Below, piece after piece: positions 9,872-26,188 of a stretch of 32,000 nt of DNA. Source of the DNA: Candidatus Syntropharchaeum caldarium (GTDB lineage: Archaea > Halobacteriota > Syntropharchaeia > Syntropharchaeales > Syntropharchaeaceae). Location of the stretch: the NCBI GenBank assembly GCA_001766815.1, contig LYOS01000007.1, positions 1 to 32,000 of the forward strand. The letters are read 5' to 3'. The notes beneath the pieces are model-generated. The model did no database searches, was not told where the DNA came from, and was given only the letters and a program-made list of their open reading frames with translations. The first letter of the stretch is position 1. The number at the start of each line of letters is the position of its first letter. Position numbers and translations under genes: made by a program.

Positions 9872-10567
9872 CTAAAACAACTCCGCACTCGAATGAACAA
9901 CGATCCCCTCGTTTGTGATCGAGTATGGCCTTATCTTTCTTGAATGAGCACTTCGGCGCATCTTGACGATCTCAAGTGCGAGTGAGACCTCCCTCAATTC
10001 ACACTGGCGAATGTACCTCAATGAGATGACGCCATCTGAGACGTACTCAATAAAGCCGTATTTCGAGTGGAGTGAGTCGTCGGTAGCACTCTCTGAGGTT
10101 AGAATCGTTGTAATTCCACTCTGTTTAAATAGGTTTGCGAGAAAAAAGATATGCTCTCTTCTTTCAGCCTCACTTGCAAAGAGTATCTCGAGCAGTGTTA
10201 TAGAATCGAATACAAGCCGCTTTGTCCCGAAGTTCTTAATTATCTCAGGAAGCTCTGAGGCGATCCGCTCGATCGAGACCTTTATATCGGCTGGATTAAA
10301 CCTCACCACAAGCAGCTTACCCTCTCTGATGTACCTCTCAAGATCCCATCCATAATCCGCTGCGGTATCGACGATCTCCTTCTCGCTCTGGTCGAGTGTG
10401 ATGTAGATCGCTGAATCTCCCTGCAGAAGTCCGTGGTATGTATACTGGAGCGAGAACGTCGTCTTCCCTGTTCCATATCCACCAACGAGAAGGACTGTGT
10501 GCCCCCTGGGAAATCCTCCTCCAAGCATCTCATCAATTCCCTCGATCCCAACGCTCAATCGTTCCAT
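9872..10567 (-). CDS. KaiC/RecA-superfamily ATPase (single-domain KaiC-like), canonical P-loop
   Basis: 231 aa. Contains GIEGIDEMLGGGFPRGHTVLLVGGYGTGKTTF (KaiC-type N-terminus plus Walker A) and Walker B KRLVFDSIT. Last gene of a three-gene minus-strand operon. Confidence 0.85.
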   Translation of the reverse strand: MERLSVGIEGIDEMLGGGFPRGHTVLLVGGYGTGKTTFSLQYTYHGLLQGDSAIYITLDQSEKEIVDTAADYGWDLERYIREGKLLVVRFNPADIKVSIERIASELPEIIKNFGTKRLVFDSITLLEILFASEAERREHIFFLANLFKQSGITTILTSESATDDSLHSKYGFIEYVSDGVISLRYIRQCELREVSLALEIVKMRRSAHSRKIRPYSITNEGIVVHSSAELF

Positions 10568-10569
10568 TT

Positions 10570-11355
10570 TTACCCCTTCCCTAAAATCTGTCGGATCGGA
10601 ATGAGGCTCAACCCGTCATACGGCGATATATTCACCTCAAAGTTTACGATATCCTCTTCATCAAGCCTTGATAGCTCTCCACGAAACTTATTTATGGACA
10701 TCAGGCGAGTTCTCGCACCAGATCTCGTATCGCTCCATCTGAATGAGAGAACGCCGTCCACAACATCTGCAACCTCCTCCTCAAGTGCCTTCTCAAAGAT
10801 ATTTGAGGTCAGCATCAGGTACACCAGCCCACCCCACCGCTTCGATACCCGCTGCAGTCCCTGCAGGAATTTTATAAACTCTCCCCAATCGGACGCATCT
10901 GAGTATGCTCTGAGCAGGCTTGTGAGCGAGTCGATGATGACAAGACGCTCACTGACATTCTTCTCATCAAGACACTCCACAATCTCTTTTAGAAGCTCAC
11001 GATCCCGACCTGCATCTTTGAGCAGATTCAGTGTATGATCATTATTATCCGTAATCCATGAGAGTGGGATCTGTGAACGCCTGAAATACGACTCCGAAAT
11101 GTCTCTGATCTCAATATCACCGGGTTCAAGGTTTGCAAAGGATGTGCGCACCTCATCGAGTATATCATCCCGAGATCTCGTCATTGAGATATAGCAGACA
11201 TTCTTCTTTTGATTTGAGAGCGCAATCATCGAGGTATATGCAAACTCATAGTGTCCGCTTCCAACCTCTCCAAGAAGAAGAATGAGCGAACCTTTTCTCA
11301 CCCCGCCATTGAAGATCATATCAAGGGATGGTATCCCGCATGCAACTTTATTCAT
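10570..11355 (-). CDS. KaiC-like paralog with degenerate P-loop
   Basis: 261 aa with the same architecture (GIPSLDMIFNGGVRKGSLILLLGEVGSGHYEF), but Walker A reads GEVGSGHY instead of GxxGxGKT. Walker-B-like LVIIDSLTSLL is retained. It lies 2 nt from the downstream gene and overlaps the upstream gene by 8 nt. Confidence 0.75.
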   Translation of the reverse strand: MNKVACGIPSLDMIFNGGVRKGSLILLLGEVGSGHYEFAYTSMIALSNQKKNVCYISMTRSRDDILDEVRTSFANLEPGDIEIRDISESYFRRSQIPLSWITDNNDHTLNLLKDAGRDRELLKEIVECLDEKNVSERLVIIDSLTSLLRAYSDASDWGEFIKFLQGLQRVSKRWGGLVYLMLTSNIFEKALEEEVADVVDGVLSFRWSDTRSGARTRLMSINKFRGELSRLDEEDIVNFEVNISPYDGLSLIPIRQILGKG

Positions 11356-12916
11356 CCTCTATCCTCTTTTCCACCTCAATCTCCTCCATCTCTCGTTTTA
11401 TGAGATGAAACTCCTGAGTTGTTAGCGTGGCACCATCGAGCGTTACAAGCGCAGATGAATTCGATGGCATCACACAGTCATTCACAAGCTGGAAGAACTT
11501 GTGGATCGAGACGAAGCTGTTCTGTGTCATCAGATACTCAACACCCTCGATCAGGATCAATCCTTTCTCAGCCTGCTTCACGAAATTGTCGATCATCTCA
11601 AAACATAGTGAGAGTTCGTTCGGAGAGAGACAGGTCTCGGGTGGGATCTTATTCTTCACAAGCCAGATGATGGGGGTGTTCTCAAGCCCATACTTCGCTC
11701 TTATCTTTTTAGGGTTCATCCTCGTGATGCACAGCCCTTCCATACCGTGCTTTACACCATCTGCAAATACTTCAAGCGCCAGCGAAGGTTTTTCTTCATC
11801 GAAGATGTAGATTGTGCCTGCATCAATCCTGTATCTCGACTCTCCAAGCTCGGTAACCTCTTTTGATGGCAGAACGATGATGCCCTCAAGATCGGTTATA
11901 TCTGTTAATGTTATCACAACCCCTGTAAGCTCATTCTCACTCTCGAATGTTGAGACCGATGCCATGATCGGGATTGTTACACCACCCCCTCTTGTAAGAT
12001 TTATCCGCTGATACTTTCCGTCTTTTACTTCGATCGGTGTCTTGAAGATGCCTGACAATGTAAGCTCAGATTCGCTCTGTTCCTCAATCTCAAGAAGCTC
12101 TCTTGCTGCAGGATTTATCATCTTCACTCTGCCATCACTATCTGCTGTTATCGTTGCAATCGGCGTTCGGTCAAGAACCATTGATAGATACTCGTTCTCC
12201 ACCCTGATTTTTTCCTCAAGTCGTTTCTTCTCGGTGATATCGATGAAACTCACGACTGTTCCTGCATCTATCTCGTTATCCTCCTCCAGTCTACTTTGAT
12301 TGAGAAGAATTACAGCTTTTTCGCGATTTTTCGGCTCTATCGTGCATTCCCCTTCCATCCCTATCTCATTGAATGGGATCAGATCCTCCAGAGCCTTTCC
12401 AAGTACCTCAGCCTGTGTGTATCCTGTTATCTCCTCTGCTTTCCTGTTCCAGGTCTTGATTTTTCCATTAGAATCTGTCACAGCCACGCCAGATGGCACG
12501 GTTGCAAGCACAGCTTCGAGGTGATTGTTGAGATTTTCAATCTGGTTTGATACGACGAGAAGATCCTCGCGCTGGAGATAGTACTCAAGTGTCATCTCCT
12601 CAAGGGCCTTCTTGCTCGCTGCAAGTTCGTCCTCCATTGCCTTTATTTGATTGAGATCAAATCCATGTAAGAGGAAGAGACGTCTGTCATTCGCACCATC
12701 ATCGAGTTTCAGGGGTGTAAGCGAGATATGATACGCTACCTCTCCTTTTTCAGGATCGTTGACGCTTATATCAAAGCACTCCTGCTTATCAAACCCATCA
12801 GAAAGATTTTTTAAATCATCAATGAATTTGTCGGTTAGGAGTGCCTCAAAGGTGCTGTTCGACATTATTTTCTCCCATCTCTCATCAAATAAAGCCATCA
12901 GATCCATTTTCGACAC
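11348..12916 (-). CDS. Cytoplasmic sensor: PAS domains plus C-terminal DUF835
   Basis: 522 aa with no TM segments. There are two clear PAS modules (LEAVLATVPSGVAVTDSNGKIKTWNRKAEEITGY... and LSMVLDRTPIATITADSDGRVKMINPAAREL...), preceded by a coiled coil. The C-terminal block GLCITRMNPKKIRAKYGLENTPIIWL...LILIEGVEYLM...LVTLDGATLTTQEFHLIKREM matches DUF835. There is no kinase or HTH output domain. Confidence 0.8.
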   Translation of the reverse strand: MSKMDLMALFDERWEKIMSNSTFEALLTDKFIDDLKNLSDGFDKQECFDISVNDPEKGEVAYHISLTPLKLDDGANDRRLFLLHGFDLNQIKAMEDELAASKKALEEMTLEYYLQREDLLVVSNQIENLNNHLEAVLATVPSGVAVTDSNGKIKTWNRKAEEITGYTQAEVLGKALEDLIPFNEIGMEGECTIEPKNREKAVILLNQSRLEEDNEIDAGTVVSFIDITEKKRLEEKIRVENEYLSMVLDRTPIATITADSDGRVKMINPAARELLEIEEQSESELTLSGIFKTPIEVKDGKYQRINLTRGGGVTIPIMASVSTFESENELTGVVITLTDITDLEGIIVLPSKEVTELGESRYRIDAGTIYIFDEEKPSLALEVFADGVKHGMEGLCITRMNPKKIRAKYGLENTPIIWLVKNKIPPETCLSPNELSLCFEMIDNFVKQAEKGLILIEGVEYLMTQNSFVSIHKFFQLVNDCVMPSNSSALVTLDGATLTTQEFHLIKREMEEIEVEKRIEDE

Positions 12917-13018
12917 CCTTTTTTATATCATACTCTATTATGTGTTTCATTCTTTAAATATATTTTTTTATCTTTAAAGATACTTTTTTATATCTTGATA
13001 TTATAAATTATTCATAAG
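12917..13018. promoter_or_regulatory. 102-bp AT-rich divergent promoter region between the sensor/KaiC operon and the pilus operon
   Basis: TATA-like TTTTTATAT (12986-12994) lies about 27 nt before ATG 13019, implying a leaderless or near-leaderless mRNA. On the minus strand, AAATATATTTAAAG (about 12954-12967) is followed by GGGTG 7 nt before ATG 12916. There is a perfect 12-bp palindrome ATCTTTAAAGAT at 12970-12981. TCTTTAAA recurs at 12951-12958 and 12971-12978. Confidence 0.4.
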
Positions 13019-14623
13019 ATGCTAAAAATCTTTAGCAGAAATCGACAAAAAGATGCACAGGTCAAAGAGGACGAAGACCCCTCCGAGCTCGTATCGTTCA
13101 TCGTACCACCTGATAATATCGAGCTTGAGCGTTACGTCCTGAATGATGGAAGAGCGATCGCAGTAATCATCGAGGATGGGGCAACAAAGATTAAAAGATA
13201 CCATCTCATAGAACCAATCCTGACTCAGGAGGAAAAGTTTCTGCTCGAAGAGCTCTATGATAACCTTCAGGATGTTCTGACACTTGAGGATCTGGAAACG
13301 GGTGAAGAAGCGGGTACCCAGCATCGAAGAGAGGTACTTCAGCGAAACATTGCTCGACTCCTGAAGAACTATGGAATTACCTTGAGCCCTGCTGCATCTG
13401 GCAGGATCTCTTATTATCTTGAGCGAAACTTCCTTGGATATGAGCGGATCGATGGGTTGATGGATGATCCATGGATCGAAGATATATCCTGTGATGGTGT
13501 GGGTCTGCCAATATATCTATACCACAGGAAGTACCAGAATCTACCAACAAATATCTCATTTCAGGATGAGGAGACGCTCAATTCGTTCATCATTCGACTC
13601 GCACAGAAAGGCGGAAAACATATCTCAATCGGTGAACCGCTCGTGGATGCAACACTTCCCGATGGTTCAAGACTCCAGATAACGTACGGGCGTGAGGTCA
13701 CATCACACGGCTCAACGTTCACGATAAGAAAGTTCAGAGAAGATCCGTTCACCCCGCCCGAACTTATCAAAAATAACACCTTCTCGGTTGGGATGCTTGC
13801 ATACCTCTGGCTCTGCATCGAGAACAGCAAGAGTCTGATCTTTGCTGGAGGAACTGCTTCTGGCAAGACTTCATCACTAAATGCGGTCTCGTTCTTTATC
13901 CCACCGATGGCGAAGATCGTATCAATTGAGGATACACGGGAGATCACGCTCTACCATGAGAACTGGATCCCTGCTGTTACGAGAAACCCTGTGACAAAAG
14001 GTGGTGAGGGCGAGGTTACGATGTTTGATCTCCTGAAGGCAGCGTTGAGGCAACGACCTGAGTATATACTACTGGGAGAGGTGAGAGGTGCAGAGGCTTT
14101 AACGCTCTTTCAGGCGATGAATACAGGGCACACAACCTACTCAACGATCCATGCAGAGGACCCTCAGAGTGTTGTGAGCAGGCTTGAGAATGAGCCGATC
14201 AACGTCCCGCCTGTGATGCTCCAGGCACTTGATATCATCGTGGTTCAGATCCAGACACGTCTTGGTGGGAAACGGGTGAGGCGTGCAAATACACTTGTTG
14301 AGATCATCGGAATCGATCCGCAGACAAAGAATCTGAGGATAAATGAGCTCTTCAGATGGGATCCTGCAACAGACGACTTCACGCAGCTTGGCGACTCGCA
14401 TAAGTTGCGGGAGATCATGAAAGAGCGGGCATGGACAAGGGATGAACTTATGGATGAACTTCATCGAAGGGAAAAAGTGCTTGAATGGATGGTCTGTGAG
14501 GATACTATGGACTACAGGAAGGTTGCAGAAGTTCTCCAGGCATACAATCTTGATCCTGAGCGTAGTGTGTCTGAAATCAAGGATGGGTGCGAATATGCAG
14601 AACTCGACCTCCAGATTGTTTAG
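13019..14623 (+). CDS. Type IV pilus/archaellum-family secretion ATPase (ArlI/PilB/VirB11-like)
   Basis: 534 aa. Walker A is GGTASGKTSSLNA, Walker B/Asp box is PEYILLGEVRGAEA, and the His box is TGHTTYSTIHA. The N-terminal domain resembles ArlI-type ATPases. Confidence 0.9.
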   Translation: MLKIFSRNRQKDAQVKEDEDPSELVSFIVPPDNIELERYVLNDGRAIAVIIEDGATKIKRYHLIEPILTQEEKFLLEELYDNLQDVLTLEDLETGEEAGTQHRREVLQRNIARLLKNYGITLSPAASGRISYYLERNFLGYERIDGLMDDPWIEDISCDGVGLPIYLYHRKYQNLPTNISFQDEETLNSFIIRLAQKGGKHISIGEPLVDATLPDGSRLQITYGREVTSHGSTFTIRKFREDPFTPPELIKNNTFSVGMLAYLWLCIENSKSLIFAGGTASGKTSSLNAVSFFIPPMAKIVSIEDTREITLYHENWIPAVTRNPVTKGGEGEVTMFDLLKAALRQRPEYILLGEVRGAEALTLFQAMNTGHTTYSTIHAEDPQSVVSRLENEPINVPPVMLQALDIIVVQIQTRLGGKRVRRANTLVEIIGIDPQTKNLRINELFRWDPATDDFTQLGDSHKLREIMKERAWTRDELMDELHRREKVLEWMVCEDTMDYRKVAEVLQAYNLDPERSVSEIKDGCEYAELDLQIV

Positions 14624-16463
14624 CATCGCTTACAGGATCTTTGGGGGAAGTGTGCAGAAAAAGGATCTTTCTGCGCTTTCGCTGGATCTGAGGCGAGCCA
14701 GGATCCCAATTCCAGCGGCAATCTACCTCTCAACCTCGAGACTCATCGCATCTTTCCTTGCAATCTTTGGGGGTTTCATCGGGGTTCTTGCAGGATATGC
14801 AATCGTTCCTTATCCTGATCTTGCAGGTTTCATTCTGATCCTATCTGCTGGATCACTCGGTGCGATTCTCTTCTATCTGCTCACGATGCGAACATGCCTT
14901 GTGTACCCCACCTTCAGGATGAATACGAGGAAGATGAAGATAGAGAGAGGTCTGCTTCATGGGATAAACTACCTCTATGCGATGGCAAAAGGCGGAATGG
15001 GAATGATCGATGCTTTTCGATCTCTACATAGGCATGAGGAGGTATATGGCGAGTGTGCAGTAGAGGCAGGTTATATCGTAAGGGATGTTGAGTACTTCGG
15101 GCTTGACCTTAAAACCGCTCTTATGCGAGCATCGAAGAACACACCGTCCGAGAAGTTCAGGGATTTCATTGAGGGTTTGATCTCGGTGATGAATACAGGT
15201 GGCTCGATCGAGAACTATCTTGCAACCAGGTCAGAGCAGTATCAGGAACTTGCAGAGGAGGATAATAATTTCTTTCTTGATACGCTTGGTATGCTCGCAG
15301 AATGTTATGTTACGGTATTTGTTGCAGCACCATTATTTCTCATCACGATCGTCCTTGTTCTGGGGATGCTGAAATCAGGAACACTTCTGATACTCGCTAT
15401 CATCGTGTATGTCCTTATCCCAATCGGGACTTCACTCTTTATCATTCTGCTTGATGCAATCACAACCAGGACAGATGAAGAGGCACCATCCTTTATCAGG
15501 TTGAAAAAACTCAATGTATTTGATGACGTACACACCATCGAGGGAGATGGGGAAAGTATCGTTGATGCGTTGAAGTGGTATGCGAAGGTCGAGCGTATCA
15601 GGTTCTTCCTGCGCTCTCCATTCCGCTTCTTTATCGAGAAACCATACAGGAGTTTCTATATCTCACTCCCACTAACTCTCATCTATCTCCTCGAACTCCT
15701 GCACCCTTCATGGCAAATCCCAACAGACTTTGACCGCTCGATCTTCTATGCCACCATTCTCTTACTTCTTCCATACTCGCTATTCTTTGAGATTAGAGCA
15801 AAGCGGATAAGGGATATTGAGAGGATGGTACCTGAGTTCTTGAGACGGCTTAAGAGCATAAATGAGACCGGGCTACATCTTGTCGATTCTATACGGGTTA
15901 TGATCAGATCGAACATGGGGGTTTTAACAAGCGAGATAGTAAGGGTTGCAAGCTCGATTGAGTGGGGAAATACCGTTGGGGAAGCATTACGCAAGCTTGA
16001 GGTCAGGGTAAAGACAGGTGCATTATCAAGAGCGATCACGCTGCTTGTCGATGCAGATCGTGCAACAGGAAACCTGAGGGATATACTCTCTATTGCAGCA
16101 TTGAATGCTGAGATCATGCAGCGACTCAGGGAGCGGCGAAGTGCTGCGATGTCGATCTACCTTATAATCGTGTACATTACCTTTGCGGTATTCTTATTTA
16201 CGATATACATAATAACGACGAAGTTTCTTGGTGGAATGCCCAAAATTCCGATTGAAGGTGCCGAAGAGTTCCTCTCAGTTGACTACGATCTCTCCCTCTA
16301 TGAAAAGGTGCTCTTTCATGGATCACTCCTCCAGGGTTTCTTCTCAGGGATCGTTGGTGGACAGATGAGCTCAGGGAATCCATACAGTGGGATCAAGCAT
16401 GCAATTGTGATGATGATCGCAGCATATCTTGTCTTTGTGTTTCTGATATGGGGTGAAGGATGA
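14595..16463 (+). CDS. Polytopic membrane platform protein (ArlJ/FlaJ/PilC/TadC-like, two T2SS-F-like halves)
   Basis: Multiple TM helices are separated by two cytoplasmic helical domains (e.g. TALMRASKNTPSEKFRDFIEGLISVMNTGGSIENYL and EALRKLEVRVKTGALSRAITLLVDADRATGNLRDIL). The probable start is ATG 14595 (or 14583), overlapping the ATPase stop. The track start at 14442 is an in-frame extension through the ATPase gene. Confidence 0.8.
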   Translation: MQNSTSRLFSIAYRIFGGSVQKKDLSALSLDLRRARIPIPAAIYLSTSRLIASFLAIFGGFIGVLAGYAIVPYPDLAGFILILSAGSLGAILFYLLTMRTCLVYPTFRMNTRKMKIERGLLHGINYLYAMAKGGMGMIDAFRSLHRHEEVYGECAVEAGYIVRDVEYFGLDLKTALMRASKNTPSEKFRDFIEGLISVMNTGGSIENYLATRSEQYQELAEEDNNFFLDTLGMLAECYVTVFVAAPLFLITIVLVLGMLKSGTLLILAIIVYVLIPIGTSLFIILLDAITTRTDEEAPSFIRLKKLNVFDDVHTIEGDGESIVDALKWYAKVERIRFFLRSPFRFFIEKPYRSFYISLPLTLIYLLELLHPSWQIPTDFDRSIFYATILLLLPYSLFFEIRAKRIRDIERMVPEFLRRLKSINETGLHLVDSIRVMIRSNMGVLTSEIVRVASSIEWGNTVGEALRKLEVRVKTGALSRAITLLVDADRATGNLRDILSIAALNAEIMQRLRERRSAAMSIYLIIVYITFAVFLFTIYIITTKFLGGMPKIPIEGAEEFLSVDYDLSLYEKVLFHGSLLQGFFSGIVGGQMSSGNPYSGIKHAIVMMIAAYLVFVFLIWGEG

Positions 16464-18058
16464 GGTTTATTCGGGATGAAAACGCGGTATCCGAGATCGT
16501 TGGTGAGATTCTGATGATAGGGGTTGTGGTAATCTCCTTCGGTCTCGTAACAACCTTTGTCTATACGTACCTGTCAGGACCTGATATTTCGCCAGGGATA
16601 GACGTAACGGGAATAGCAGATGATACGCTTGATATGATATATCTCAAGCACAGCGGTGGGGAGTGGGTTGGTGAGAACGAACTCAAGGTTATCCTGCGGA
16701 TAAACGATACAACCTACCAGTATAACTGCACGGATGAGTTCAGGCTCGGGGATGTGATCGAGATCAATACTTCAAGTGAGTATGGTCTTGATCTCAGGCG
16801 GGGCGAAGAGGTAACGATCCTGCTTATTCATGTACCAACGGGACAGATCATATCCTCAGGCGAACTCGGATACAGGGCAGCAGACTGCTCTGAAGATTCA
16901 ACACCCCCGTCATCGGTTACAAACCTCAGGAATACAACCTTTGAACCCTCATACATCATCTGGGCATGGGATAACCCGGCAGACGAGGATTACTCACATG
17001 CAGAGGTCTACATCGATGGCATCTATCAGGGCACAACCTCTGCAAGCTGGTACAATGCAACAGGGTTTGATTCAGGGACGAGCCACACAATATCACTCAG
17101 AACGGTCGATACCTGCGGGAATGTTGATGCAACATGGGTGAATGGTAGCGCGAGAACCTTCAGGCCCTGGTGGGATGCGGGATGGGGATACAGAAGACCA
17201 GTAAACATTACATCCTCTGATGCGCTCTCAGACCACCAGATCAGGTTTTATATTCCCTATGATAGCGATATGCAATCAGACTTTGATGATCTGCGGTTTA
17301 CAACCCAGGATGATTCTCCGATACTCCACTGGCTTGAGCTTAAAAGTAATAGTAACTGGGCAAGTGTGTGGGTCAAGGTTCCGACAATCGCGGATGGAAA
17401 CACCACGATATACATGTACTACGGGAATGCAAGCGCTGGGAACGCATCAAACACCGCGACGTTCGAGTTTTTTGATGACTTTGATGCCTGGAGTGGGTGG
17501 AGCGACTACGGGTCTGGGACGGTTGAATGGACGTCTTATGGCTCTGAGTACGTGCTTAAGAAGAACGGAAGCTGTGATCCAAGTGGAGGATGGAAGAGTC
17601 TCGGGATACAGGTTACAGACTATCGTCTGGTGACAAGAGAGCGAAGGGATGTTGAGGGGTCTGATTGTGGTATGGATCGTTATGGGATCGAAGATTCAAG
17701 CTACAACGGCTATAACATCTACAGGACTGCTTACACATCTGGATCCGGGAGCTTTGGGTTTGAGCGAAGAACAGGAGGGTCTTCCACGGGCAGATGGTAC
17801 ACAAGTCTCAGTCAGCCCTATAACAACTGGTACATCACAGAATTAAAACGAGATGGGTCAAATTTCAATGCATCGTTGTTTGATGGGGATGACAGAGGTT
17901 ATATCGGCTCGCAAACAGGGAGTGATTCAGTCCACTCAGGTCCATTTGACAGGGTTGTGATAAGGGGCGGGAGACCTTATTATGTTGACTGGATTGCGCT
18001 TTGTAAGTACAGCATGCCTGAACCCACTTACGCGATAGGAGATGAGGAGGAATATTAG
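16460..18058 (+). CDS. Large pilin-like protein: archaeal pilin N-terminus, FN3-like domain, DUF2341, ConA-like C-terminal domain
   Basis: The N-terminus MRFIRDENAVSEIVGEILMIGVVVISFGLV resembles the archaeal class III signal and hydrophobic helix (compare DDRAVSPVIGVILMV). It is followed by the beta domain of the Pilin_N/DUF1628 type (YLKHSGGEWV...GDVIEI...VTILLIHVPTGQIISS). Next come an FN3-like segment (PPSSVTNLRNTT...WDNPADEDYSHAEVYIDG) and DUF2341 (WGYRRPVNITSS...FDDLRFT...WVKVPTI..NTTIYMYYGN). The C-terminus begins FEFFDDFDAWSGW (jelly-roll type). An ATGA overlap couples it to the platform gene. Confidence 0.75.
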   Translation: MRFIRDENAVSEIVGEILMIGVVVISFGLVTTFVYTYLSGPDISPGIDVTGIADDTLDMIYLKHSGGEWVGENELKVILRINDTTYQYNCTDEFRLGDVIEINTSSEYGLDLRRGEEVTILLIHVPTGQIISSGELGYRAADCSEDSTPPSSVTNLRNTTFEPSYIIWAWDNPADEDYSHAEVYIDGIYQGTTSASWYNATGFDSGTSHTISLRTVDTCGNVDATWVNGSARTFRPWWDAGWGYRRPVNITSSDALSDHQIRFYIPYDSDMQSDFDDLRFTTQDDSPILHWLELKSNSNWASVWVKVPTIADGNTTIYMYYGNASAGNASNTATFEFFDDFDAWSGWSDYGSGTVEWTSYGSEYVLKKNGSCDPSGGWKSLGIQVTDYRLVTRERRDVEGSDCGMDRYGIEDSSYNGYNIYRTAYTSGSGSFGFERRTGGSSTGRWYTSLSQPYNNWYITELKRDGSNFNASLFDGDDRGYIGSQTGSDSVHSGPFDRVVIRGGRPYYVDWIALCKYSMPEPTYAIGDEEEY

Positions 18059-19546
18059 ATGCTAAAAGATGAGGATGCAATCTCGGTCGTTCTATCGGTC
18101 GTTCTCTTACTCGGCGTGCTTGTTACAGTTCTTGGAATTGTTCATGTTACGTATCTCCCTGAGTGGCGAAAATCTGCTGAGGCAGATCACATGGATGACA
18201 TACTTGAGGATCTTGCAGATCTCAAATCAGGTATCGACCTCGTTGCAGCGGTCTCCCCGGATACATCGTGCACGGTTTCACAGAAGATGCGACTTGGTGG
18301 CGGATCGATCCCTGTTATATCACCCCAAAAAAGTGGTGGAACACTCAGAACAGACCCATCCCTTCCAGATCTCTACATAACTGCGGATAACTATACCGTG
18401 GCTTATGCCTTCCCAGATCTTGGCTCGATCGAGCTTGAAGTGGACAACCTCTATGCTCTGGATCGCATATATGTCTATGAGGACGGGGCACTGATCCTGA
18501 AGGAGGTTAATCGTTCAATAATGGTACTCTCCCCTGGTATAACCCTGCAAAAGTTTAATAACGGAACAAAGGCGCTCACCATTCAGGTCATCAATATGAG
18601 CCTTGAGAGTGAATCTGTTGCAGGCTCAGGTATTGAGGAGGTTTATTTCACATACACCTCGTCCACAACCCATCATGCAGGTACAACCTCGAATGTGACG
18701 CTTACACTCACATCTGAGTACCTTGATGCATGGAAGGCTTTCTTCACCGATCGGGCAAAGAATGCTGGCTTTAATGCGACTGAGTTCAACGTGACCGCAT
18801 CCCAGAATGTTGAGCTTGATATCTATGGAGATGTGTTACTCAACGTGGTTGAGGTTGATGGGGATGCACGGATAAGACCTGTGATCGAGGCGATTGAGCC
18901 GACATGGACGCCTGGCGGTGGGATATCATGGGGTTGTGGAGGATGGTGGAAGCTTGATGCAGGGTCTGGCACAACAGCCACGGATAGTTCTGGAAATGAT
19001 AATCACGGCACGATACATGGTGCAACATGGTCATCTGGATACCTGCACTTTGATGGCTCAAACGACTATGTCAGTATCCCTGACAACGACTCGCTTGAAC
19101 CGCAGGATGCGATCACGCTTGCGGCATGGGTTAAATGGGAATGCGATCCATCCACAGGGCACAGTTGGGCAAATATCATCAGCAAGTACGGGGACAACCA
19201 GTATCTACTCCAGCATAACGTCAACAACCAGTACTTCGAGGTTGCTGTGCGAACAGATACAGGCAGGAGCTATACCTGGTCGAGCACAGAGCCACAGCAG
19301 GGCGTCTGGTACCATGTTACAGGGGTCTATGATAGTTCTGATGTTATAATCTATGTGAACGGGACACAGGAGAACTCAATGGGACGTACAGGAAATATCA
19401 CGACCTCGTCATCGCCTGTGAACCTTGGAAGGCGGGCATGGAGTGGAGATCGGTACTTCAATGGCGTGATTTATGATGCGAGGATATATTGCCGTGCACT
19501 CACACCTTCTGAGATACAGGCACTCGCATCCTCACCACCACCATAA
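18059..19546 (+). CDS. Pilin-like protein with C-terminal LamG (Laminin_G_3-type) lectin-fold domain
   Basis: N-terminus is MLKDEDAISVVLSVVLLLGVLVTVLGIV (short leader plus hydrophobic helix). A domain of about 265 aa is shared with the next gene. The LamG-like block follows (WWKLDAGSGTTATDSSGNDNHGTIHGATW...LHFDGSNDYVSIPD...ITLAAWVKW...FNGVIYDARIYCRALTPSEIQAL). The ATG directly abuts the stop of the previous gene. Confidence 0.75.
   Translation: MLKDEDAISVVLSVVLLLGVLVTVLGIVHVTYLPEWRKSAEADHMDDILEDLADLKSGIDLVAAVSPDTSCTVSQKMRLGGGSIPVISPQKSGGTLRTDPSLPDLYITADNYTVAYAFPDLGSIELEVDNLYALDRIYVYEDGALILKEVNRSIMVLSPGITLQKFNNGTKALTIQVINMSLESESVAGSGIEEVYFTYTSSTTHHAGTTSNVTLTLTSEYLDAWKAFFTDRAKNAGFNATEFNVTASQNVELDIYGDVLLNVVEVDGDARIRPVIEAIEPTWTPGGGISWGCGGWWKLDAGSGTTATDSSGNDNHGTIHGATWSSGYLHFDGSNDYVSIPDNDSLEPQDAITLAAWVKWECDPSTGHSWANIISKYGDNQYLLQHNVNNQYFEVAVRTDTGRSYTWSSTEPQQGVWYHVTGVYDSSDVIIYVNGTQENSMGRTGNITTSSSPVNLGRRAWSGDRYFNGVIYDARIYCRALTPSEIQALASSPPP
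18797..18906 (+). repeat. 110-nt tract, 100% identical to 20271-20380 (copy 1)
   Basis: Base-by-base comparison of gcatcccagaatgttgagc...gcgattgagccgacatg is identical in both genes. It encodes ASQNVELDIYGDVLLNVVEVDGDARIRPVIEAIEPT. Confidence 0.95.
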
Positions 19547-19550
19547 ACAG

Positions 19551-20381
19551 ATGATGAAAATGAGATATATCATGGATGATGCGGCAAACGTTATCATTGT
19601 AGCAACCGTTCTACTTCTGGGACTGCTTGTAGCTGTGACTGCGATCATTAATGCAACATACATCCCTGAATGGAAGAGCGTGGCAGAGGCAGAGCAGATG
19701 GAGGAGGTCTGTGAGGATTTTAAGGATCTTAAAATGGGGATCGATATTGTTACATCCGCATTTCCTGATCGAGTGGTTGCATCATCCCATATAATAGGGA
19801 TGGGAGGGGGTGGAACACTCAGGACAGATCCGGATCTTCCTTCGGTATATATCGCAACCGATGACTATACGCAGACGATGGCGTTTGAGCATCTTGGATC
19901 GATAAGTTTTGAGTCAGATAATCACCATGAGCTTGATCGCACGTACATCTATGAGAGCGGTGCTGTGATTGTGGAGGAGATAAACCGTTCGATGATGAGA
20001 CTCGCCCCAACAATTGATTTTACGAGATTTAACAACGGGACAAAGGCTGTAACAATGCGCATCATCAATATGAGCCTCGATGAAGAGGTGATAACAGGTG
20101 ATAAGATCGCCAATCTCGAACTCGTCCTCATCTCAGAGGATCTTGTATTCTCAGATAATGTCCTGAACATGAGCTTCACGATAACATCCAGACACTCAGA
20201 TGCATGGGAGGAGTTTCTGATAGAGCGTGCAACGTGTGCTGGTTTCAATGAGAGTGAATTTGATATAACAGCATCCCAGAATGTTGAGCTTGATATCTAT
20301 GGAGATGTGTTACTCAACGTGGTTGAGGTTGATGGGGATGCACGGATAAGACCTGTGATCGAGGCGATTGAGCCGACATGA
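19551..20381 (+). CDS. Pilin-like paralog of the 18059-19546 N-terminal module, lacking the LamG domain
   Basis: Contains ...MDDAANVIIVATVLLLGLLVAVTAIINATYIPEW. It aligns along its whole length with residues 1 to about 283 of the preceding protein, with roughly half the residues identical by eye. Candidate starts are 19551, 19554, 19560 and 19572; the track start at 19473 overlaps the previous gene. It ends at a TGA exactly where the paralog has TGG. Confidence 0.7.
   Translation: MMKMRYIMDDAANVIIVATVLLLGLLVAVTAIINATYIPEWKSVAEAEQMEEVCEDFKDLKMGIDIVTSAFPDRVVASSHIIGMGGGGTLRTDPDLPSVYIATDDYTQTMAFEHLGSISFESDNHHELDRTYIYESGAVIVEEINRSMMRLAPTIDFTRFNNGTKAVTMRIINMSLDEEVITGDKIANLELVLISEDLVFSDNVLNMSFTITSRHSDAWEEFLIERATCAGFNESEFDITASQNVELDIYGDVLLNVVEVDGDARIRPVIEAIEPT
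20271..20380 (+). repeat. 110-nt tract, 100% identical to 18797-18906 (copy 2)
   Basis: Same as copy 1. Flanking sequence is divergent on both sides: 11 mismatches in the 33 nt immediately upstream, and no similarity downstream. Confidence 0.95.
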
Positions 20382-20429
20382 ACAGTAGTTTGATGGGATG
20401 AAACCGCAGAAGTCACCAATCTCGAAAAT

Positions 20430-20873
20430 CTATGTGAAGAAGCTCTTGAACCACCGGGTAATGACTTTCTTCGCAGCGTCATATCCACCATCAAGATAAA
20501 TCGCACCGATCAATGCTTCGAGCGTTTCTGCAAGAACTTTTGGCTCTTCGTTTGCTCTATGTTTTTTCTCTCCAGCACCCAGCTTAATGAAAGGTCCAAT
20601 TCCAATATCTTGAGCAATCTTTGCAAGCCCTTCTTCTCTTTCAAGTCTTATCTTTTCGCTTGTTATCTCATCCCTTGTCTTACAGCCTGATTTTATCAAT
20701 AGATCTACCAACACCGCTTTCAATATTGCATCGCCAAGGGTTCGATATATCTCCTGATCTTCGCAATCACGGTTCTGTTGTTTTGCTTCGAGCGCATGTG
20801 CCTTGCGTGTCAATGCACGATCAAGGAGCTCTTTGTTAGAGAACGAATAACCAAGATCTTTCTCGATTGTCAT
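20430..20873 (-). CDS. RNase III catalytic-domain-only protein (no dsRBD)
   Basis: About 147 aa from ATG 20873; GTG 20882 is also possible. RNase III blocks are present: LGYSFSNKELLDRALT, the signature region QEIYRTLGDAILKAVLVD, and VLAETLEALIGAIYLDGG. The protein ends about 25 aa after the last block, so there is no room for a dsRNA-binding domain. Confidence 0.75.
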   Translation of the reverse strand: MTIEKDLGYSFSNKELLDRALTRKAHALEAKQQNRDCEDQEIYRTLGDAILKAVLVDLLIKSGCKTRDEITSEKIRLEREEGLAKIAQDIGIGPFIKLGAGEKKHRANEEPKVLAETLEALIGAIYLDGGYDAAKKVITRWFKSFFT

Positions 20874-20922
20874 GTGGAACACACCATTAAAATCATAGTC
20901 GTTTACAGGAGGAAAGTTGTTA

Positions 20923-20995
20923 GGCCGAGGTCGGGATTCGAACCCGAGTCAAAGGATCCACAGTCCTTTAGCATAACCACTAACCCACCCCGGCC
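20923..20995 (-). tRNA. tRNA-His (anticodon GUG), with genome-encoded G-1 and no encoded CCA
   Basis: Minus strand reads G-GCCGGGG-UG-GGUUAGUGGUUAUGCU-A-AAGGA-CUGUGGA-UCCUU-UGAC-UCGGG-UUCGAAU-CCCGA-CCUCGGC-C. It has a 7-bp acceptor stem (one G-U), a 5-bp anticodon stem with a CUGUGGA loop (GUG, plus-strand cac at 20959-20961), and a 5-bp T stem with UUCGAAU. An extra 5' G pairs with C73, the histidine identity feature. The D stem is weak. Confidence 0.9.
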
Positions 20996-21155
20996 ATTCC
21001 GTGAGATATATCGAATATTAATTTGGGGAGTGTATATAACCCTGTCGTTCAGGCTGCGTGGTTTGAGTGTTAAGAGGTCTATCGGAATTCTTTATATATC
21101 CTTGTGATGAATGTCTCTTTGATAACCTCTTATAATTATCAAATGGAGTGGTTCT

Positions 21156-23750
21156 GTGCAGAATATAGCAAAAGAGTACGATCACAGGCGTATTGAAGCG
21201 AAAGGCATCGAGAATTGGGATGACAGCCTTTATTATTTTGATTGGGAGTCTGATAAAGCACCTTACATTATCGATACGCCTCCACCATATCCAACAGGTA
21301 GCTTTCACATAGGAAATGCACTCAACTGGTGTTATATCGATTTTATAGCGAGATACAGGCGTATGCAGGGGTATAATGTGATGTTTCCTCAGGGATGGGA
21401 CTGTCATGGCCTTCCGACAGAGGTGAAGGTTGAGGAGACACACGAGATAACAAAGAGTGGGCTTGATAGGATTGAGTTCAGAAGACTGTGCTGTGAATTG
21501 ACCTCATCGAACATCGAGAAGATGCGGAATACGATGAAATCACTCGGTCTCTCGATCGACTGGTCGAATGAGTACATCACAATGGATCCTGCTTACTACA
21601 GAAAGACGCAGGTTTCCTTTGTCAGGATGTACGAGAAAGGGCTTATCTATCGTGATGATCATCCAGTGAACTGGTGTCCGAGATGCAAGACTGCGATCGC
21701 ATTTGCAGAGGTTGAGTATGACACGAGAGAGACATCTTTGAATTACATACACTTTGAAGGCGTTGATATCGCAACCACAAGACCAGAACTGATCCCTGCA
21801 TGTGTTGCTGTTGCTGTTAACCCTGATGATGAGCGGTTCACGGATCTTATTGGCAAAGAGGTTGGCGTTCCAATATTTGATTACCACGTGCCAGTTATAG
21901 CAGATCCAGAAGTTGATTCTACGTTTGGTACAGGAATTGTTATGATCTGTACGTTTGGTGATAAACAGGATGTCAGGTGGTGGAAAGAGCATTCATTGCC
22001 CCTTAGAAGGGCTATTGATCGGGATGGAGTGATGACCGAGATTGCGGGTAGATACGCCGGGATGAAGATCAAAGAGACAAGGGATGCTATAATAGAAGAC
22101 CTCAAAAGACTTGGTTTGCTCTATGAGAGCGAGCGAATAGAGCAGAATGTTGGGCTTTGCTGGCGGTGCAAGACACCGATTGAGATACTCTCCGAACGTC
22201 AGTGGTTTGTCAGGATTGAACAGGAGAAGGTGCTTGATGCAGCGGCAAAGATCGAGTGGATACCAGATTACATGATAATCAGGCTCAAAAACTGGGTTGA
22301 GTCGATGGAATGGGACTGGTGTATTTCAAGGCAGCGTCTATTTGCAACACCGATACCAGTCTGGTACTGTAAAGCGTGTGGTAAAGCGCTTGTAGCAAGA
22401 GAGGCTGAACTCCCGGTTGATCCAACAATTGATTTGCCTGAAGAAACATGTTCGTGCGGATCTAATGAGTTTGAGGGTGAAACAGATGTTCTTGATACAT
22501 GGATGGACAGTTCAATCTCTGCGCTTGTTGTTGGGGGCTGGCTTGAAGATAAATTTATTTTTCCGACACAGTTAAGACCGCAGGGGCACGATATCATCCG
22601 TACATGGGCTTTTTACACAATTTTGCGATCGATCGCGCTCACAGACAAGATCCCATGGGAGACGATTGTTATAAATGGTATGGTGCTTGGTGAGGATGGG
22701 CACAAGATGAGTAAATCAAGGAATAACATCACAGCACCTGAAGCAGTGATGGAAAAGTATGGTGCCGATGCCTTCAGGCAGTGGGCCGCAATCGGAGGAT
22801 CAACAGGCTCTGATGTGATGTTCAGGTGGAAGGATATTGTTGCAGCCTCGCGGTTTCTACAGAAACTGTGGAGCATTCTCAGATTCTCATTGATCCACAT
22901 CGATAAAGAAAAAGCCCCTTACAAAAAACCAGAGCAACTTCGTGCAACTGACAGATGGCTTCTTACACGACTCAACATGCTGATTGAGACTGTCACCGCG
23001 AAGATGGATGCCTACAGCTTCGATGAGGCGATGAAGGAGATACGTGGATTTACGTGGAACATACTTGCAGATGACTACATCGAGCTTGTGAAGTCAAGAC
23101 TTTACTCAGCAAACTCTGATGGAAGCGAATCTGCAATCTACACGCTTTACACTACAATGGAAACATTATCAAGGCTCATCGCACCTTTTATGCCATTCTT
23201 TGCCGAGGAGATGCACTCATATCTCGCTGCGGATAGTGTACACGCAAAAGATTGGCCAGTTGTCAACTATGACCTGATCGATGAGCGATCGCTTGAGGAG
23301 GGCGAGCTTATACGAAAGATCGTTGAAGCGGTTCGAAGGTACAAATCAGAGAATAAAATTCCCCTCAACGCACCACTTAAAAATATTGAAATTTACACGA
23401 CCCTCGATCTGGACGTTGATGATATAAAAGGAACCTTGAACAGTGAGGTTGAGATTGTAAGTCCCACAACAACACTCAACATGAAGGCGGTCTCAATCAA
23501 GCCAAGGATGGATGTGATCGGTCCTATGTACAGGAAGCAGGCTGGAGAGATTGCAAAGCGGTTGCGTGAACTTGACGCCGAAGAGGTCGAACAACTCATA
23601 TCAGAAGGAAAGAAGGTCGAGATTGAGGTTGCTGGAGATCACATAGTGCTCGACGATTCAAGTTTTGAGATTGAACATGCTTTTGAATCCAGAGGAGAGC
23701 GGGTCGATCTTTTGGAGGTTTCTGGGATGAAGATTGCGGTTGCAAGGTGA
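21156..23750 (+). CDS. valS: Valyl-tRNA synthetase, archaeal type
   Basis: 864 aa with a GTG start at 21156 and GGAG 8 nt upstream. HIGH-type motif is [14 protein letters not shown] and KMSKS is [11 protein letters not shown]1 editing domain and Zn-type Cys pairs (CPRCKT, CWRCKT, CKACG) are present. Confidence 0.96.
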
Positions 23751-23834
23751 GAGGCGAAACAGGTCACAAAGAAGTGCAGGTAAAATTTTCAAAATCCTCC
23801 TTATTTTTATTCGCAATCCTTATAATCATTTACA

Positions 23835-25293: not shown

Positions 25294-26124
25294 TCACTCA
25301 GGAAAGATCGAGTGATTGGAGTGGGGTAATATCCCTGCGTCTTCGCCCATTTTAAAAAGGTATTCAACCGCCTTTATCCCCTCATCTCCAATATCGAGCG
25401 TGTTATCATTGACATAAAGATTGATATGTTCAGAAATTACATCATCATCCATCTCCTGGGCGTAAGATCTGATATAGCTCATCGCTTCGTTTGGATTTTC
25501 AAAAGCATACTCGATACTCGATCTGAGCCATCTATTGAACTCATGAATCAGGTTGTATCCAAGCGATCGATCGATCACAATTCCACCAAGCGGTATCAAA
25601 AGCCCCGTCTCATCTTCCCACCACTTTCCAAGATCTATTACCGCTTTCAAGCCATAGATTGGGTATGTGAACCTCCCTTCATGGATTATAAGCCCACAAT
25701 CAACATCCCCTGATCTAACAGCTGGCATGATTCTGTCAAAAGACATCACAACGGTCTCTTTGATCTCAGGCTCAAATAACTTCAGAAGCAGGTTTGCAGT
25801 TGTACAGGTGCCTGGTATTGCGATGCGCTTATTTTTAATCTCCTCCGGGTCGATCACCTCATTTGCAACGATCAATGGACCGCATCCTTCTCCAAGCGCG
25901 GCGCCTGCACGAAGAAGTGCATATCTCTCTCTTAAAAATCCAAAAGCATGAAACGAGACCTTTGTAACATTCAGGGTGTGCTTGAATGCCATCCTGTTCA
26001 GTGTTTCAACATCATCGATCACGGGTTTGAAGGTTACATCCCCTGTCGAGATCCGCCGGTGCATCAGTGCATAGAAGATAAAGGTATCATTCGGGCAGGG
26101 TGAGTATCCAACGCTCAACTTCAC
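25294..26124 (-). CDS. mqnD: MqnD-like protein (MqnA/MqnD periplasmic-binding-fold family; 1,4-dihydroxy-6-naphthoate synthase-like)
   Basis: VKLSVGYSPCPNDTFIFYALMH matches the N-terminal SPCPNDTF signature I associate with MqnD. The ORF has no ATG near its 5' end: the longest ORF begins at TTG 26172, and homology-style reasoning favours GTG 26124 (VKLSVGYSPC...). The start is uncertain and the stop is firm. Confidence 0.6.
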   Translation of the reverse strand: MKLSVGYSPCPNDTFIFYALMHRRISTGDVTFKPVIDDVETLNRMAFKHTLNVTKVSFHAFGFLRERYALLRAGAALGEGCGPLIVANEVIDPEEIKNKRIAIPGTCTTANLLLKLFEPEIKETVVMSFDRIMPAVRSGDVDCGLIIHEGRFTYPIYGLKAVIDLGKWWEDETGLLIPLGGIVIDRSLGYNLIHEFNRWLRSSIEYAFENPNEAMSYIRSYAQEMDDDVISEHINLYVNDNTLDIGDEGIKAVEYLFKMGEDAGILPHSNHSIFPE

Positions 26125-26188
26125 ACTCAGAGAGAGCACACCAGAGGTCTTTAATATTTCGATCTCCTTCAATCGTCTGGTGAACTTT
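26125..26188. promoter_or_regulatory. Very short divergent spacer with one symmetric TATA-like element
   Basis: TTTAATATTT at 26150-26159 reads as a TATA element on either strand. It lies about 30 nt from GTG 26124 (minus strand) and about 35 nt from ATG 26189 (plus strand), implying very short or absent leaders. Confidence 0.3.

Follow-up and report, generated by a model that had tools for sequence, protein, structure and literature searches.

The window analyzed here is a stretch of 32,000 nucleotides (nt) from the butane-oxidizing archaeon Candidatus Syntropharchaeum caldarium (contig LYOS01000007.1; genus Syntrophoarchaeum below). Its central feature is a five-gene operon on the + strand (13019–20381) that encodes a type IV pilus-like motor and three large pilin-like proteins. 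By its Pfam domains, rather than by a tree, the operon is probably a euryarchaeal clade 2/system 2 (PilB3-C3-type) pilus assembly operon, and by analogy with characterized systems the products of genes 1–3 would be modular pilins of the minor or tip kind, with lectin heads on display. We give this explanation as a whole a probability of about 0.6. Comparison with related genomes indicates that the head modules are recombination cassettes exchanged between co-occurring Syntrophoarchaeum populations.

The five open reading frames (ORFs) lie in series on one strand and are tightly coupled; the ORF list and direct reading of the junctions agree with the arrangement described in a first-pass annotation of the sequence. 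The first ORF (13019–14623, 534 amino acids [aa], stop codon 14621–14623) encodes a PilB3/ArlI-like secretion ATPase of the VirB11 family. A single gene for a PilC/TadC/ArlJ-like platform protein follows (14595–16463, ~622 aa, two T2SSF domains). Its start is uncertain, with ATG 14595 the most plausible position and 14583 the other candidate, and the overlap with the ATPase stop is 29–41 nt. Gene 1 (16460–18058, 532 aa), encoding a putative modular pilin with Pilin_N, DUF2341, and ConA-like jelly-roll domains, overlaps the platform gene by an ATGA (16460–16463). The TAG of gene 1 (18056–18058) abuts the ATG (18059) of gene 2 (18059–19546, 495 aa), which encodes a putative modular minor pilin combining DUF7289 with a LamG/ConA-like domain. 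Gene 2 ends with a TAA at 19546, and a 4-nt gap (19547–19550) separates it from the ATG (19551) of gene 3 (19551–20381, 276 aa), which encodes a putative DUF7289 minor pilin paralogue with no added module. A gene for a 150-aa RNase III-domain-only (mini-III-like) protein (20430–20882, − strand) converges on the end of gene 3; the 48-nt gap between the two has no obvious terminator.

The class of the system was assigned from the motor genes, for which, as throughout, the reported Pfam calls lie above gathering scores. The ATPase matches T2SSE (116 bits, 1.8e-33, cut-off 24.9) and PilB3_C (35.8 bits against a cut-off of 27). PilB3_N scored only 13.6 bits on this protein and was called in three of its orthologues (those of loci L001, L007, and L008, described below). 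The platform protein matches T2SSF in two stretches (4.3e-29), and its matches to the NCBIfam models of ArlJ, UpsF, and BasF are weak and far under the cut-offs. The operon thus has the parts by which archaeal type IV filaments (TFFs) are recognized in general, namely a VirB11/PilB-family ATPase, a polytopic T2SSF platform, and class III/pilin N-terminal helices. It also has those of clade 2/system 2, namely a PilB3-type ATPase (PilB3_C), an unsplit platform gene, and, through the Pilin_N module of gene 1, a PilA-family pilin. The ancestral system of clade 2 has four components: the ATPase, TadC, a PilA-family pilin, and the minor pilin arCOG02911, a duplication-prone, all-β signature protein of 250–550 aa (Makarova, Koonin & Albers 2016, PMC4858521). 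The DUF7289 genes, which are tandem duplicates of 276 and 495 aa from a family with variable C-terminal extensions, fit arCOG02911 in a comparison by description only.

An archaellum, which the first-pass annotation had also discounted, was rejected on profile searches of the 32-kb window, which found no archaellin, no ArlX, and no ArlC–G genes, ArlF and ArlG included. The nearest NCBIfam model of the ATPase is the archaellum ATPase (FlaI), at 400 bits against a cut-off of 550. The earlier statement that ArlC–H are all absent holds for ArlC–G, with one correction: two KaiC-family ATPases, of the superfamily that includes ArlH, lie upstream; these score 37–52 bits, under the ArlH cut-off of 215. 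A clade 1 (Epd-type) pilus, which has two platform genes, multiple short minor pilins, and a dedicated EppA peptidase, was rejected because the locus has one platform gene, just three pilin-like genes, all of them large, and no peptidase gene. The absence from the window of any prepilin peptidase gene (PibD/FlaK/EppA), noted in the first-pass annotation, was confirmed.

Profile searches recognized the products of all three genes as pilin-type proteins, two of them with added modules. Gene 1 matches Pilin_N (59.7 bits, 5.2e-16, aa 8–83) and DUF2341 (68.8 bits, 5.5e-19, aa 274–343). Its AlphaFold2 model, from a 56-sequence alignment, has a predicted local distance difference test (pLDDT) score of 77 overall and above 90 over aa 240–530. 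The model consists of an α1 helix (aa 10–38), a β pilin body (aa 48–138), the DUF2341 domain (~aa 240–345), and a ConA-like jelly roll (~aa 346–530). Foldseek assigned aa 240–530 to the ConA-like lectin/glucanase fold, with matches to CBM66 (TMt 0.6–0.7), GH16, legume lectins, and the C-domain of GH43. The intervening residues (aa 145–235) are possibly an FN3/Ig-like linker, at low confidence and low pLDDT; matches there were weak (1k85, E 0.55; DUF4959, E 0.14), and an FN3 domain is not claimed. Gene 2 matches DUF7289 (54.3 bits, 1.8e-14, aa 7–266) and Laminin_G_3 (111.7 bits, 4.5e-32, aa 332–487), and is laid out as a DUF7289 body (aa 7–285) followed by a LamG/ConA-like domain (~aa 290–490). 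Its model has helices at aa 5–31 and 40–65 and a LamG domain with pLDDT above 90, for which Foldseek returned the lectin-like Hc-N domain of clostridial neurotoxin (BoNT) and the C-domain of the GH43 protein AbnA. Gene 3 matches DUF7289 (45.9 bits, 6.6e-12), and its product has the same sequence (100% identity) as SCAL_001696 of Ca. Syntrophoarchaeum caldarius; for gene 1, an S. butanivorans protein shares 81% identity. The folds proposed earlier, DUF2341 with a jelly roll in gene 1 and LamG in gene 2, are therefore supported by Pfam, AlphaFold2, and Foldseek alike. Genes 1 and 2 also have the composition of modular type IV pilins as defined by Raynaud et al. 2021, with Pilin_N joined to DUF2341/ConA-like modules in the one and DUF7289 joined to Laminin_G_3 in the other. 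The original definition used the bacterial IPR012902 motif, of which these are the archaeal analogue.

Each of the three proteins has one N-terminal hydrophobic segment, predicted to be helical. Cleavage of gene 1 is predicted after A9 in a class III signal (DENA|VSEIVGEILM), that of gene 2 in a class III-like signal (MLKDEDA|ISVV), and that of gene 3 at a less canonical site (DDA|AN). The gene 1 N-terminus weakly matches the start of the DUF7289 model, and in a profile-to-profile comparison with hhalign the N-terminal 125 columns of the DUF7289 family align with those of the gene 1 family (E 9.5e-6). N-glycosylation sequons occur at 2.0–2.3 per 100 aa in all three proteins, 2–3-fold over the composition-based expectation, as against 0–0.4 in most cytoplasmic neighbors (up to 1.0); gene 1 has 12. 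This enrichment is consistent with the three being surface glycoproteins. Because of the single hydrophobic segment, the sequons, the hhalign alignment, and the match of gene 1 to the DUF7289 model start, we consider the N-termini to be pilin-type and not generic anchors. It is very improbable that they are ordinary signal anchors or Sec signals on three unrelated surface proteins that happen to sit beside a pilus motor. That reading could draw on the atypical cleavage motif of gene 3 and on a DUF7289 body to which no structure could be assigned. Against it are Pilin_N and DUF7289 scores well above cut-offs, the profile-level similarity of the N-termini, start and stop codons that overlap or abut, and a gene order kept in lineages whose machinery proteins are 37–53% identical. 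The class III (prepilin-type) signals that had been proposed for all three proteins thus stand, with Pilin_N at 5e-16 and a single N-terminal hydrophobic helix in each.

A profile scan of genome contigs for the operon returned three loci. A four-gene core of ATPase, platform, Pilin_N protein, and DUF7289 protein recurs in a Halobacteriota metagenome-assembled genome (MAG; L001 and L005), in a Syntrophoarchaeum sp. 97% identical to the window in nucleotide sequence (L002–L004), in S. butanivorans BOX1 (L006), in another S. butanivorans assembly (L007), and in a more distant archaeon (L008). The five-gene order of L007 is identical to that of the window. In all of these except L008 the Pilin_N protein of the core carries DUF2341. 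The L008 Pilin_N protein has 284 aa, of which the first 140 are 35% identical to gene 1; its ATPase, platform, and DUF7289 proteins are 53%, 37%, and 40% identical to those of the window, respectively. ATPase orthologues in L001–L008 are 53–98% identical, with a ratio of nonsynonymous to synonymous divergence (dN/dS) of 0.07–0.12; dN/dS of the genes is 0.07–0.31, and across all compared segments it is 0.07–0.47. These low ratios indicate that the genes are functional and under purifying selection. The first-pass annotation had held that its proposal would fail if homologues of the three proteins did not co-occur with the ATPase/platform pair in other genomes; they do so in at least six further assemblies, which represent four or five lineages. 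In L002 (5413–7018) and L003 (1–859), which are MAGs of one study, two ORFs (389 and 149 aa) take the place of a single ATPase orthologue, which is intact in L004; the split could be a frameshift, pseudogenization, or a sequencing error.

The two pilin types also occur together away from any motor. In another archaeal lineage (L014, 9001–11332) the gene directly after that of a Pilin_N-Big_1-DUF2341 protein encodes a DUF7289 protein, and the vicinity has no motor genes, which suggests that the Pilin_N and DUF7289 types are partners. A Methanosarcinaceae MAG (L013, 9001–11012) encodes a 670-aa Pilin_N protein that stands alone and carries two LamG domains. When the DUF7289 alignment was used in a word-indexed search, the homologues (12 proteins) all came from Syntropharchaeia, and a full HMMER scan with a Syntropharchaeia DUF7289 profile against 1.84 billion representatives showed a wider family of 1189 proteins at E≤1e-3. 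Several distant members that were looked up lie on contigs of 2–5 kb with little gene context. Most members have 270–310 aa and many have 400–860 aa. Among 36 of the long ones, 32 match DUF7289; ten carry C-terminal PKD domains and others β-propeller, PA14, or Kelch domains, and none of the 36 carries LamG. The DUF7289-LamG fusion was confined to Syntrophoarchaeum in the searches run. Judged from these architectures, DUF7289 acts like a carrier pilin that has repeatedly received grafts of adhesion-type modules, and this behavior fits arCOG02911, which is 250–550 aa long and prone to duplication (PMC4858521).

The block of FN3-like, DUF2341, and ConA-like modules that makes up 53–66% of the length of gene 1 recurs in bacterial proteins at 37–49% identity. 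These matches (P0006–P0021) are Chloroflexota and metagenome proteins of ~770 aa, annotated by the Joint Genome Institute with SipW-like signal peptides. In candidate-phyla bacteria, the block, DUF2341 included, is fused to a bacterial N_methyl pilin motif (P0035, P0043, P0053, and P0054). The presence of a gene 1-type head in both Chloroflexota and N_methyl-pilin proteins therefore argues that it moves between surface-fiber carriers and between domains of life.

Within Syntrophoarchaeum, the heads and the pilin parts have different histories. We compared the window with S. butanivorans (L007) and with the 97%-identical L002 and L004 by sliding nucleotide identity and Nei-Gojobori synonymous divergence (dS). 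Over the ATPase, platform, and pilin parts, the window and L007 are 60–80% identical, and identity rises sharply in two tracts. The first tract (17519–17968), in the ConA-like head of gene 1, is 93–95% identical to S. butanivorans. The second (18719–19669) runs from the last part of DUF7289 across the entire LamG domain and the gap between the genes into the beginning of gene 3, and is 90–98% identical to L007; it stops at the L007 contig end and may extend further. dS between the window and L007 is 1.2–2.4 over the ATPase, the platform, gene 1 aa 1–352 (1.2–2.3), and gene 2 aa 1–220 (1.2), and drops to 0.23 over gene 1 aa 353–532, 0.17 over gene 2 aa 221–290, and 0.095 over the LamG domain. 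This gap at synonymous sites is too large for protein-level constraint and points to recent exchange between the two species.

The comparison with L002 and L004 gives the reverse pattern. Here dS is 0.04–0.10 everywhere except over gene 1 aa 236–532, where it is 1.2–1.9, and aa 346–532 are only 26% identical; that is, these close relatives carry a different head. The regions of L002 (8855–11470) and L004 (8384–10997) that correspond to 16460–20381 of the window have a DUF7289 gene without LamG and only two short fragments of gene 3, and their downstream genes (DUF61, DAC, and MptE-like) differ from those of the window. The same presence/absence polymorphism of LamG separates the S. butanivorans assemblies L007 and L006, with the breakpoint at the end of the DUF7289 domain. 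This breakpoint coincides with a 185-bp direct repeat, 86% identical, whose copies lie in gene 2 (18725–18909) and at the 3' end of gene 3 (20199–20383). The repeat marks the 3' ends of the DUF7289 domains, and the remainder of the gene 2 and gene 3 paralogues has ~45% protein identity. This contrast suggests gene conversion between genes 2 and 3, and the repeat is a plausible recombination substrate.

Two other origins, one of the LamG-less haplotype and one of the mosaic, were considered and rejected. A simple deletion between the 185-bp repeats would fit the breakpoint of the LamG-less haplotype, in which the matching stretch stops at 18909 and the protein terminates in ...EAIEPT like gene 3. 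However, L002 and L004 keep two internal fragments of gene 3 past the stop and have other downstream genes, so the history of this haplotype must be more complex than a deletion. Chimeric assembly fails as an explanation in that the tracts are 92–98% and not 100% identical and the donor-like sequence comes from a different metagenome. In addition, an independent metagenome assembly (L015) is collinear with positions 18247–23824 of the window at 97.9% identity, with a gene 2 copy that is 98% identical, and so the gene 2-LamG/gene 3 arrangement is not an assembly artifact. For the gene 1 head tract there is no independent copy comparable to L015.

Several observations weigh against the explanation we favor. 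The −2 residue of gene 1 is Asn, where a charged residue is usual, and the DDA|AN motif of gene 3 is atypical. The DUF7289 body of gene 2 (aa 58–288) has pLDDT below 50 in AlphaFold2 with a 55-sequence alignment, and a profile search of PDB sequences found no solved relative of DUF7289. Neither a small major pilin gene nor a prepilin peptidase gene lies within the 32-kb window. The equation of DUF7289 with arCOG02911 comes from matching descriptions and not from direct sequence comparison. Finally, gene 1 sits in the PilA-family (major pilin) slot of the published core and could be the bulk subunit.

This last point leads to the main alternative, along the lines of the first-pass annotation, which we hold to be unlikely but serious. 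The operon would be sufficient by itself, and gene 1 (together with genes 2 and 3) would provide the repeating subunit of a thick fiber, lectin-coated along its length, that would be a new archaeal adhesive class. The alternative stays under consideration because gene 1 fills the PilA-family slot and no small pilin is linked, either in the operon or in the window. The four-gene core is self-contained in several lineages, where the Pilin_N protein is always the sole PilA-family gene; the PilA-family member of that core has been taken as the major pilin (PMC4858521); and for the Pilin_N body of gene 1 (aa 1–140) L008 has an orthologue in its 284-aa Pilin_N protein (35% identity). A processed four-domain subunit of ~520 aa would, however, far exceed any characterized type IV major pilin. 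A minor-pilin role is favored by how large the proteins are, by the translational coupling of genes 1–3 to the low-copy machinery genes, and by the archaeal systems studied so far: there, pilins encoded in the operons are minor, and the major pilins often come from stand-alone genes and act in trans, as in M. maripaludis and H. volcanii (PMC4858521). A tip location is favored because every characterized lectin-bearing pilin or fimbrial subunit sits at the tip, the modular pilins with such heads being low-abundance tip proteins (PMC9934059, PMC8179133, PMC11821415). It is also favored because heads are swapped wholesale: replacement or loss of a head between 97%-identical populations would be easier at a tip than in a helical lattice.

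A further possibility, less likely than a repeating lectin-coated subunit, as is the anchor reading discussed above, is that no long pilus is made. In this case, which we regard as improbable, a short pseudopilus or bindosome-like assembly, modeled on the Sulfolobus Bas bindosome and the idea of functionalized TFFs, would hold the lectin-fold proteins in or just above the S-layer for surface display or for capture of substrates or glycans. Class III signals on large binding-type proteins are a hallmark of bindosomes (bioRxiv 10.64898/2026.04.22.720090), no major pilin is present at the locus, and the ATPase has a secondary NCBIfam match to BasE. That match, however, reaches only 204 bits against a cut-off of 1000, and the BasF match 51 against 1300, while PilB3_C points to the adhesion-pilus clade. 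The cargo domains are lectin- or CBM-like rather than ABC-type solute-binding proteins, and no ABC transporter genes are adjacent. We therefore rejected a bindosome proper.

If genes 1–3 do encode modular minor or tip pilins, the system might work as follows. The three pre-proteins would enter the membrane through the class III signal and α1 helix, and a PibD/EppA-type prepilin peptidase encoded elsewhere would trim them, at a predicted site after the Ala that precedes V/I-S. The ATPase/platform motor would then pull the trimmed proteins out of the membrane. The two DUF7289 proteins and the Pilin_N protein may form a priming complex, located at the distal tip or sparsely along a filament for which a small PilA-type pilin, encoded in trans, is the most likely bulk subunit. 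Such a complex would display two ConA-superfamily heads, DUF2341 with its jelly roll from gene 1 and LamG from gene 2. These heads may bind glycans or glycoproteins on other cells or on the matrix and so promote the dense aggregates of the syntrophic archaeon. As interchangeable cassettes, they would be moved by homologous recombination between co-occurring Syntrophoarchaeum populations.

Tight consortia are the only setting in which syntrophic alkane- and methane-oxidizing archaea live, and the means by which cells find and hold each other there are unknown. Pili in these archaea have been discussed mainly as putative nanowires (PMC7175092, PMC10322722). The operon offers testable adhesin candidates in the form of two ConA-superfamily heads on pilin modules. 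The heads resemble specificity cassettes that co-occurring species can exchange, as is typical of molecules that serve recognition, and this exchange is a concrete, testable lead on consortium formation. The modular pilin principle, which structural work established in bacteria, is also extended to archaea, namely to Pilin_N and DUF7289 proteins. DUF7289, a large family that has not been studied, thereby gains a working role, that of a pilin that carries adhesive modules. As speculation, to which we attach a low probability, the lectin heads might be the determinants by which Syntrophoarchaeum recognizes and holds its own kind or its sulfate-reducing partner Ca. Desulfofervidus in electron-sharing consortia, with co-resident species exchanging head cassettes to keep matching the same surface glycans. 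If true, the heads would form a "partner-recognition code" that is carried by an archaeal type IV pilus and shared horizontally.

Just upstream of the pilus operon, and divergent from it, lie genes for a PAS and DUF835 (inactivated-KaiC-like) sensor protein (11348–12916, − strand) and two single-domain KaiC-family ATPases (10570–11355 and 9872–10567, − strand), as identified with Pfam and NCBIfam. The KaiC neighbors score 289.7 bits with KaiC_arch_3, above the cut-off of 249. This synteny is kept in L002, L004, and L006, and L001 has one KaiC gene. KaiC-family ATPases are associated with type IV pilus loci (PMC4858521), and DUF835 has been classed as iKaiC (PMC5847659). The PAS-DUF835/KaiC module is likely a sensor or regulator of the pilus operon and would probably control its expression or assembly. 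The divergent intergenic region (12917–13018) is AT-rich, contains the TATA-like boxes TTTATATC (twice) and TTTAAATATA, and is presumed from its sequence to be the promoter region of both the pilus operon and the opposite PAS-DUF835/KaiC genes. Downstream of the operon by 7.4 kb is a gene for a MinD/ParA/CbiA-family ATPase (27810–28547, + strand), which also matches NifH/CooC-type models. A stand-alone FleN/MinD ATPase is expected to serve clade 2 pili (PMC4858521), and a link of this gene to the operon is speculative.

Other genes of the window were noted in passing. A 789-aa secreted protein (582–2951, − strand) with a Sec-type signal, a PGF-CTERM archaeosortase motif, and no other recognized domain is likely a surface or S-layer-associated glycoprotein. 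A stand-alone McrC-like gene (6253–7155, + strand) lies beside that of leucyl-tRNA synthetase and fits an archaeon that uses alkyl-coenzyme M reductase. A menaquinone gene of the futalosine pathway (VitK2_biosynth) is located at 25294–26172 (− strand).

The literature search found no paper describing this operon in Syntrophoarchaeum and none mentioning DUF7289, and there are clear precedents for its parts. The first-pass annotation had stated that no characterized archaeal pilus uses DUF2341 or LamG subunits. This is too strong, because large DUF2341 proteins in clade 1 (Epd-type) loci have been read as PilY1-like tip adhesins (arCOG03508, PMC4858521), because system 2 loci with a single platform gene and "large adhesin-like proteins" have been described along with a proposal that TFFs are widely functionalized by binding proteins (Sivabalasarma & Albers 2026, bioRxiv 10.64898/2026.04.22.720090), and because the TafC subunit of the Haloarcula hispanica tat-fimbriae carries LamG (PMC11821415). 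Of the earlier proposal of an uncharacterized adhesive fiber, the novelty of the core does not hold, as it matches the published clade 2 system, while the exact architectures Pilin_N-(FN3-like)-DUF2341-ConA and DUF7289-LamG do appear to be specific here.

The nearest known system is the euryarchaeal clade 2/system 2 pilus, represented by the PilB3-C3 adhesion pili of Haloferax volcanii, a class that likewise has a PilB3_C ATPase, a single platform gene, and a Pilin_N/DUF1628 protein, together with a duplication-prone, all-β minor pilin of variable length whose description the DUF7289 proteins fit. Clade 2 loci also have KaiC-family ATPases nearby, and large adhesin-like proteins have been noted in system 2. 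In contrast to these, the PilA-family protein here is extended to 532 aa by FN3-like, DUF2341, and ConA-like modules, one DUF7289 copy bears LamG, no small PilA gene is linked, and the host is a syntrophic alkane oxidizer in which the system is known from its genes alone. The clade 1 DUF2341 proteins resemble gene 1 as large DUF2341 proteins inside a type IV pilus locus that are predicted to be tip adhesins (PMC4858521). They belong with a different ATPase clade and with two platform genes, many minor pilins, and EppA, all absent here, whereas in gene 1 DUF2341 is fused directly to a Pilin_N module.

A close parallel in design is bacterial. Modular pilins are widespread in bacteria, with PF13385 (LamG-type) among the commonest grafts (Raynaud et al., PMC8179133; Shahin et al.). 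In the modular minor pilins PilB and PilC of Streptococcus sanguinis, which go with PilA, Ig-like and ConA-like lectin modules are grafted onto a short pilin part (PMC8179133, PMC9934059). PilC in particular, with its pilin, Ig, and ConA-lectin parts, is in a tip complex and binds glycans (PMC9934059). In S. sanguinis, as is proposed here, several minor pilins are encoded with the machinery, and the glycan-binding tip complex is a feature of the S. sanguinis system; its non-modular partner pilin stabilizes the modular one and may parallel gene 3. Its class III signal is bacterial (N_methyl, PilD-processed), unlike the archaeal Pilin_N and DUF7289 types of this operon, and its pilin parts have no sequence homology to genes 1–3. 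We know of no retraction ATPase in archaea.

Two further comparisons concern the position of the heads. TafC, like gene 2, pairs a filament subunit domain with a laminin-G-like domain at the C-terminus; this tip subunit is modeled at the fimbrial tip and present at ~1 per 100 major subunits (PMC11821415). Tat-fimbriae, however, are Tat-secreted and assembled by donor-strand exchange, with neither an ATPase/platform motor nor a class III signal, and this class was rejected for the operon, as the N-terminus of gene 2 is class III-like and not Tat and the weak match to the TafC family model covers LamG alone, at 52 bits against a cut-off of 410. CofB of enterotoxigenic Escherichia coli and TcpB of V. 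cholerae, compared here by their description in PMC8179133 and PMC6048534, are large minor pilins with C-terminal β-sandwich or lectin-like domains at the tip that start assembly and mediate adhesion; in contrast to genes 1–3, they belong to a bacterial type IVb system and act as trimers. The lectin-head pilin design in bacteria and the link between DUF2341 and pili in archaea have thus already been published. What the Syntrophoarchaeum operon adds to these systems is the swapping of heads between co-occurring species, the exact fusion architectures, and an unusual host.

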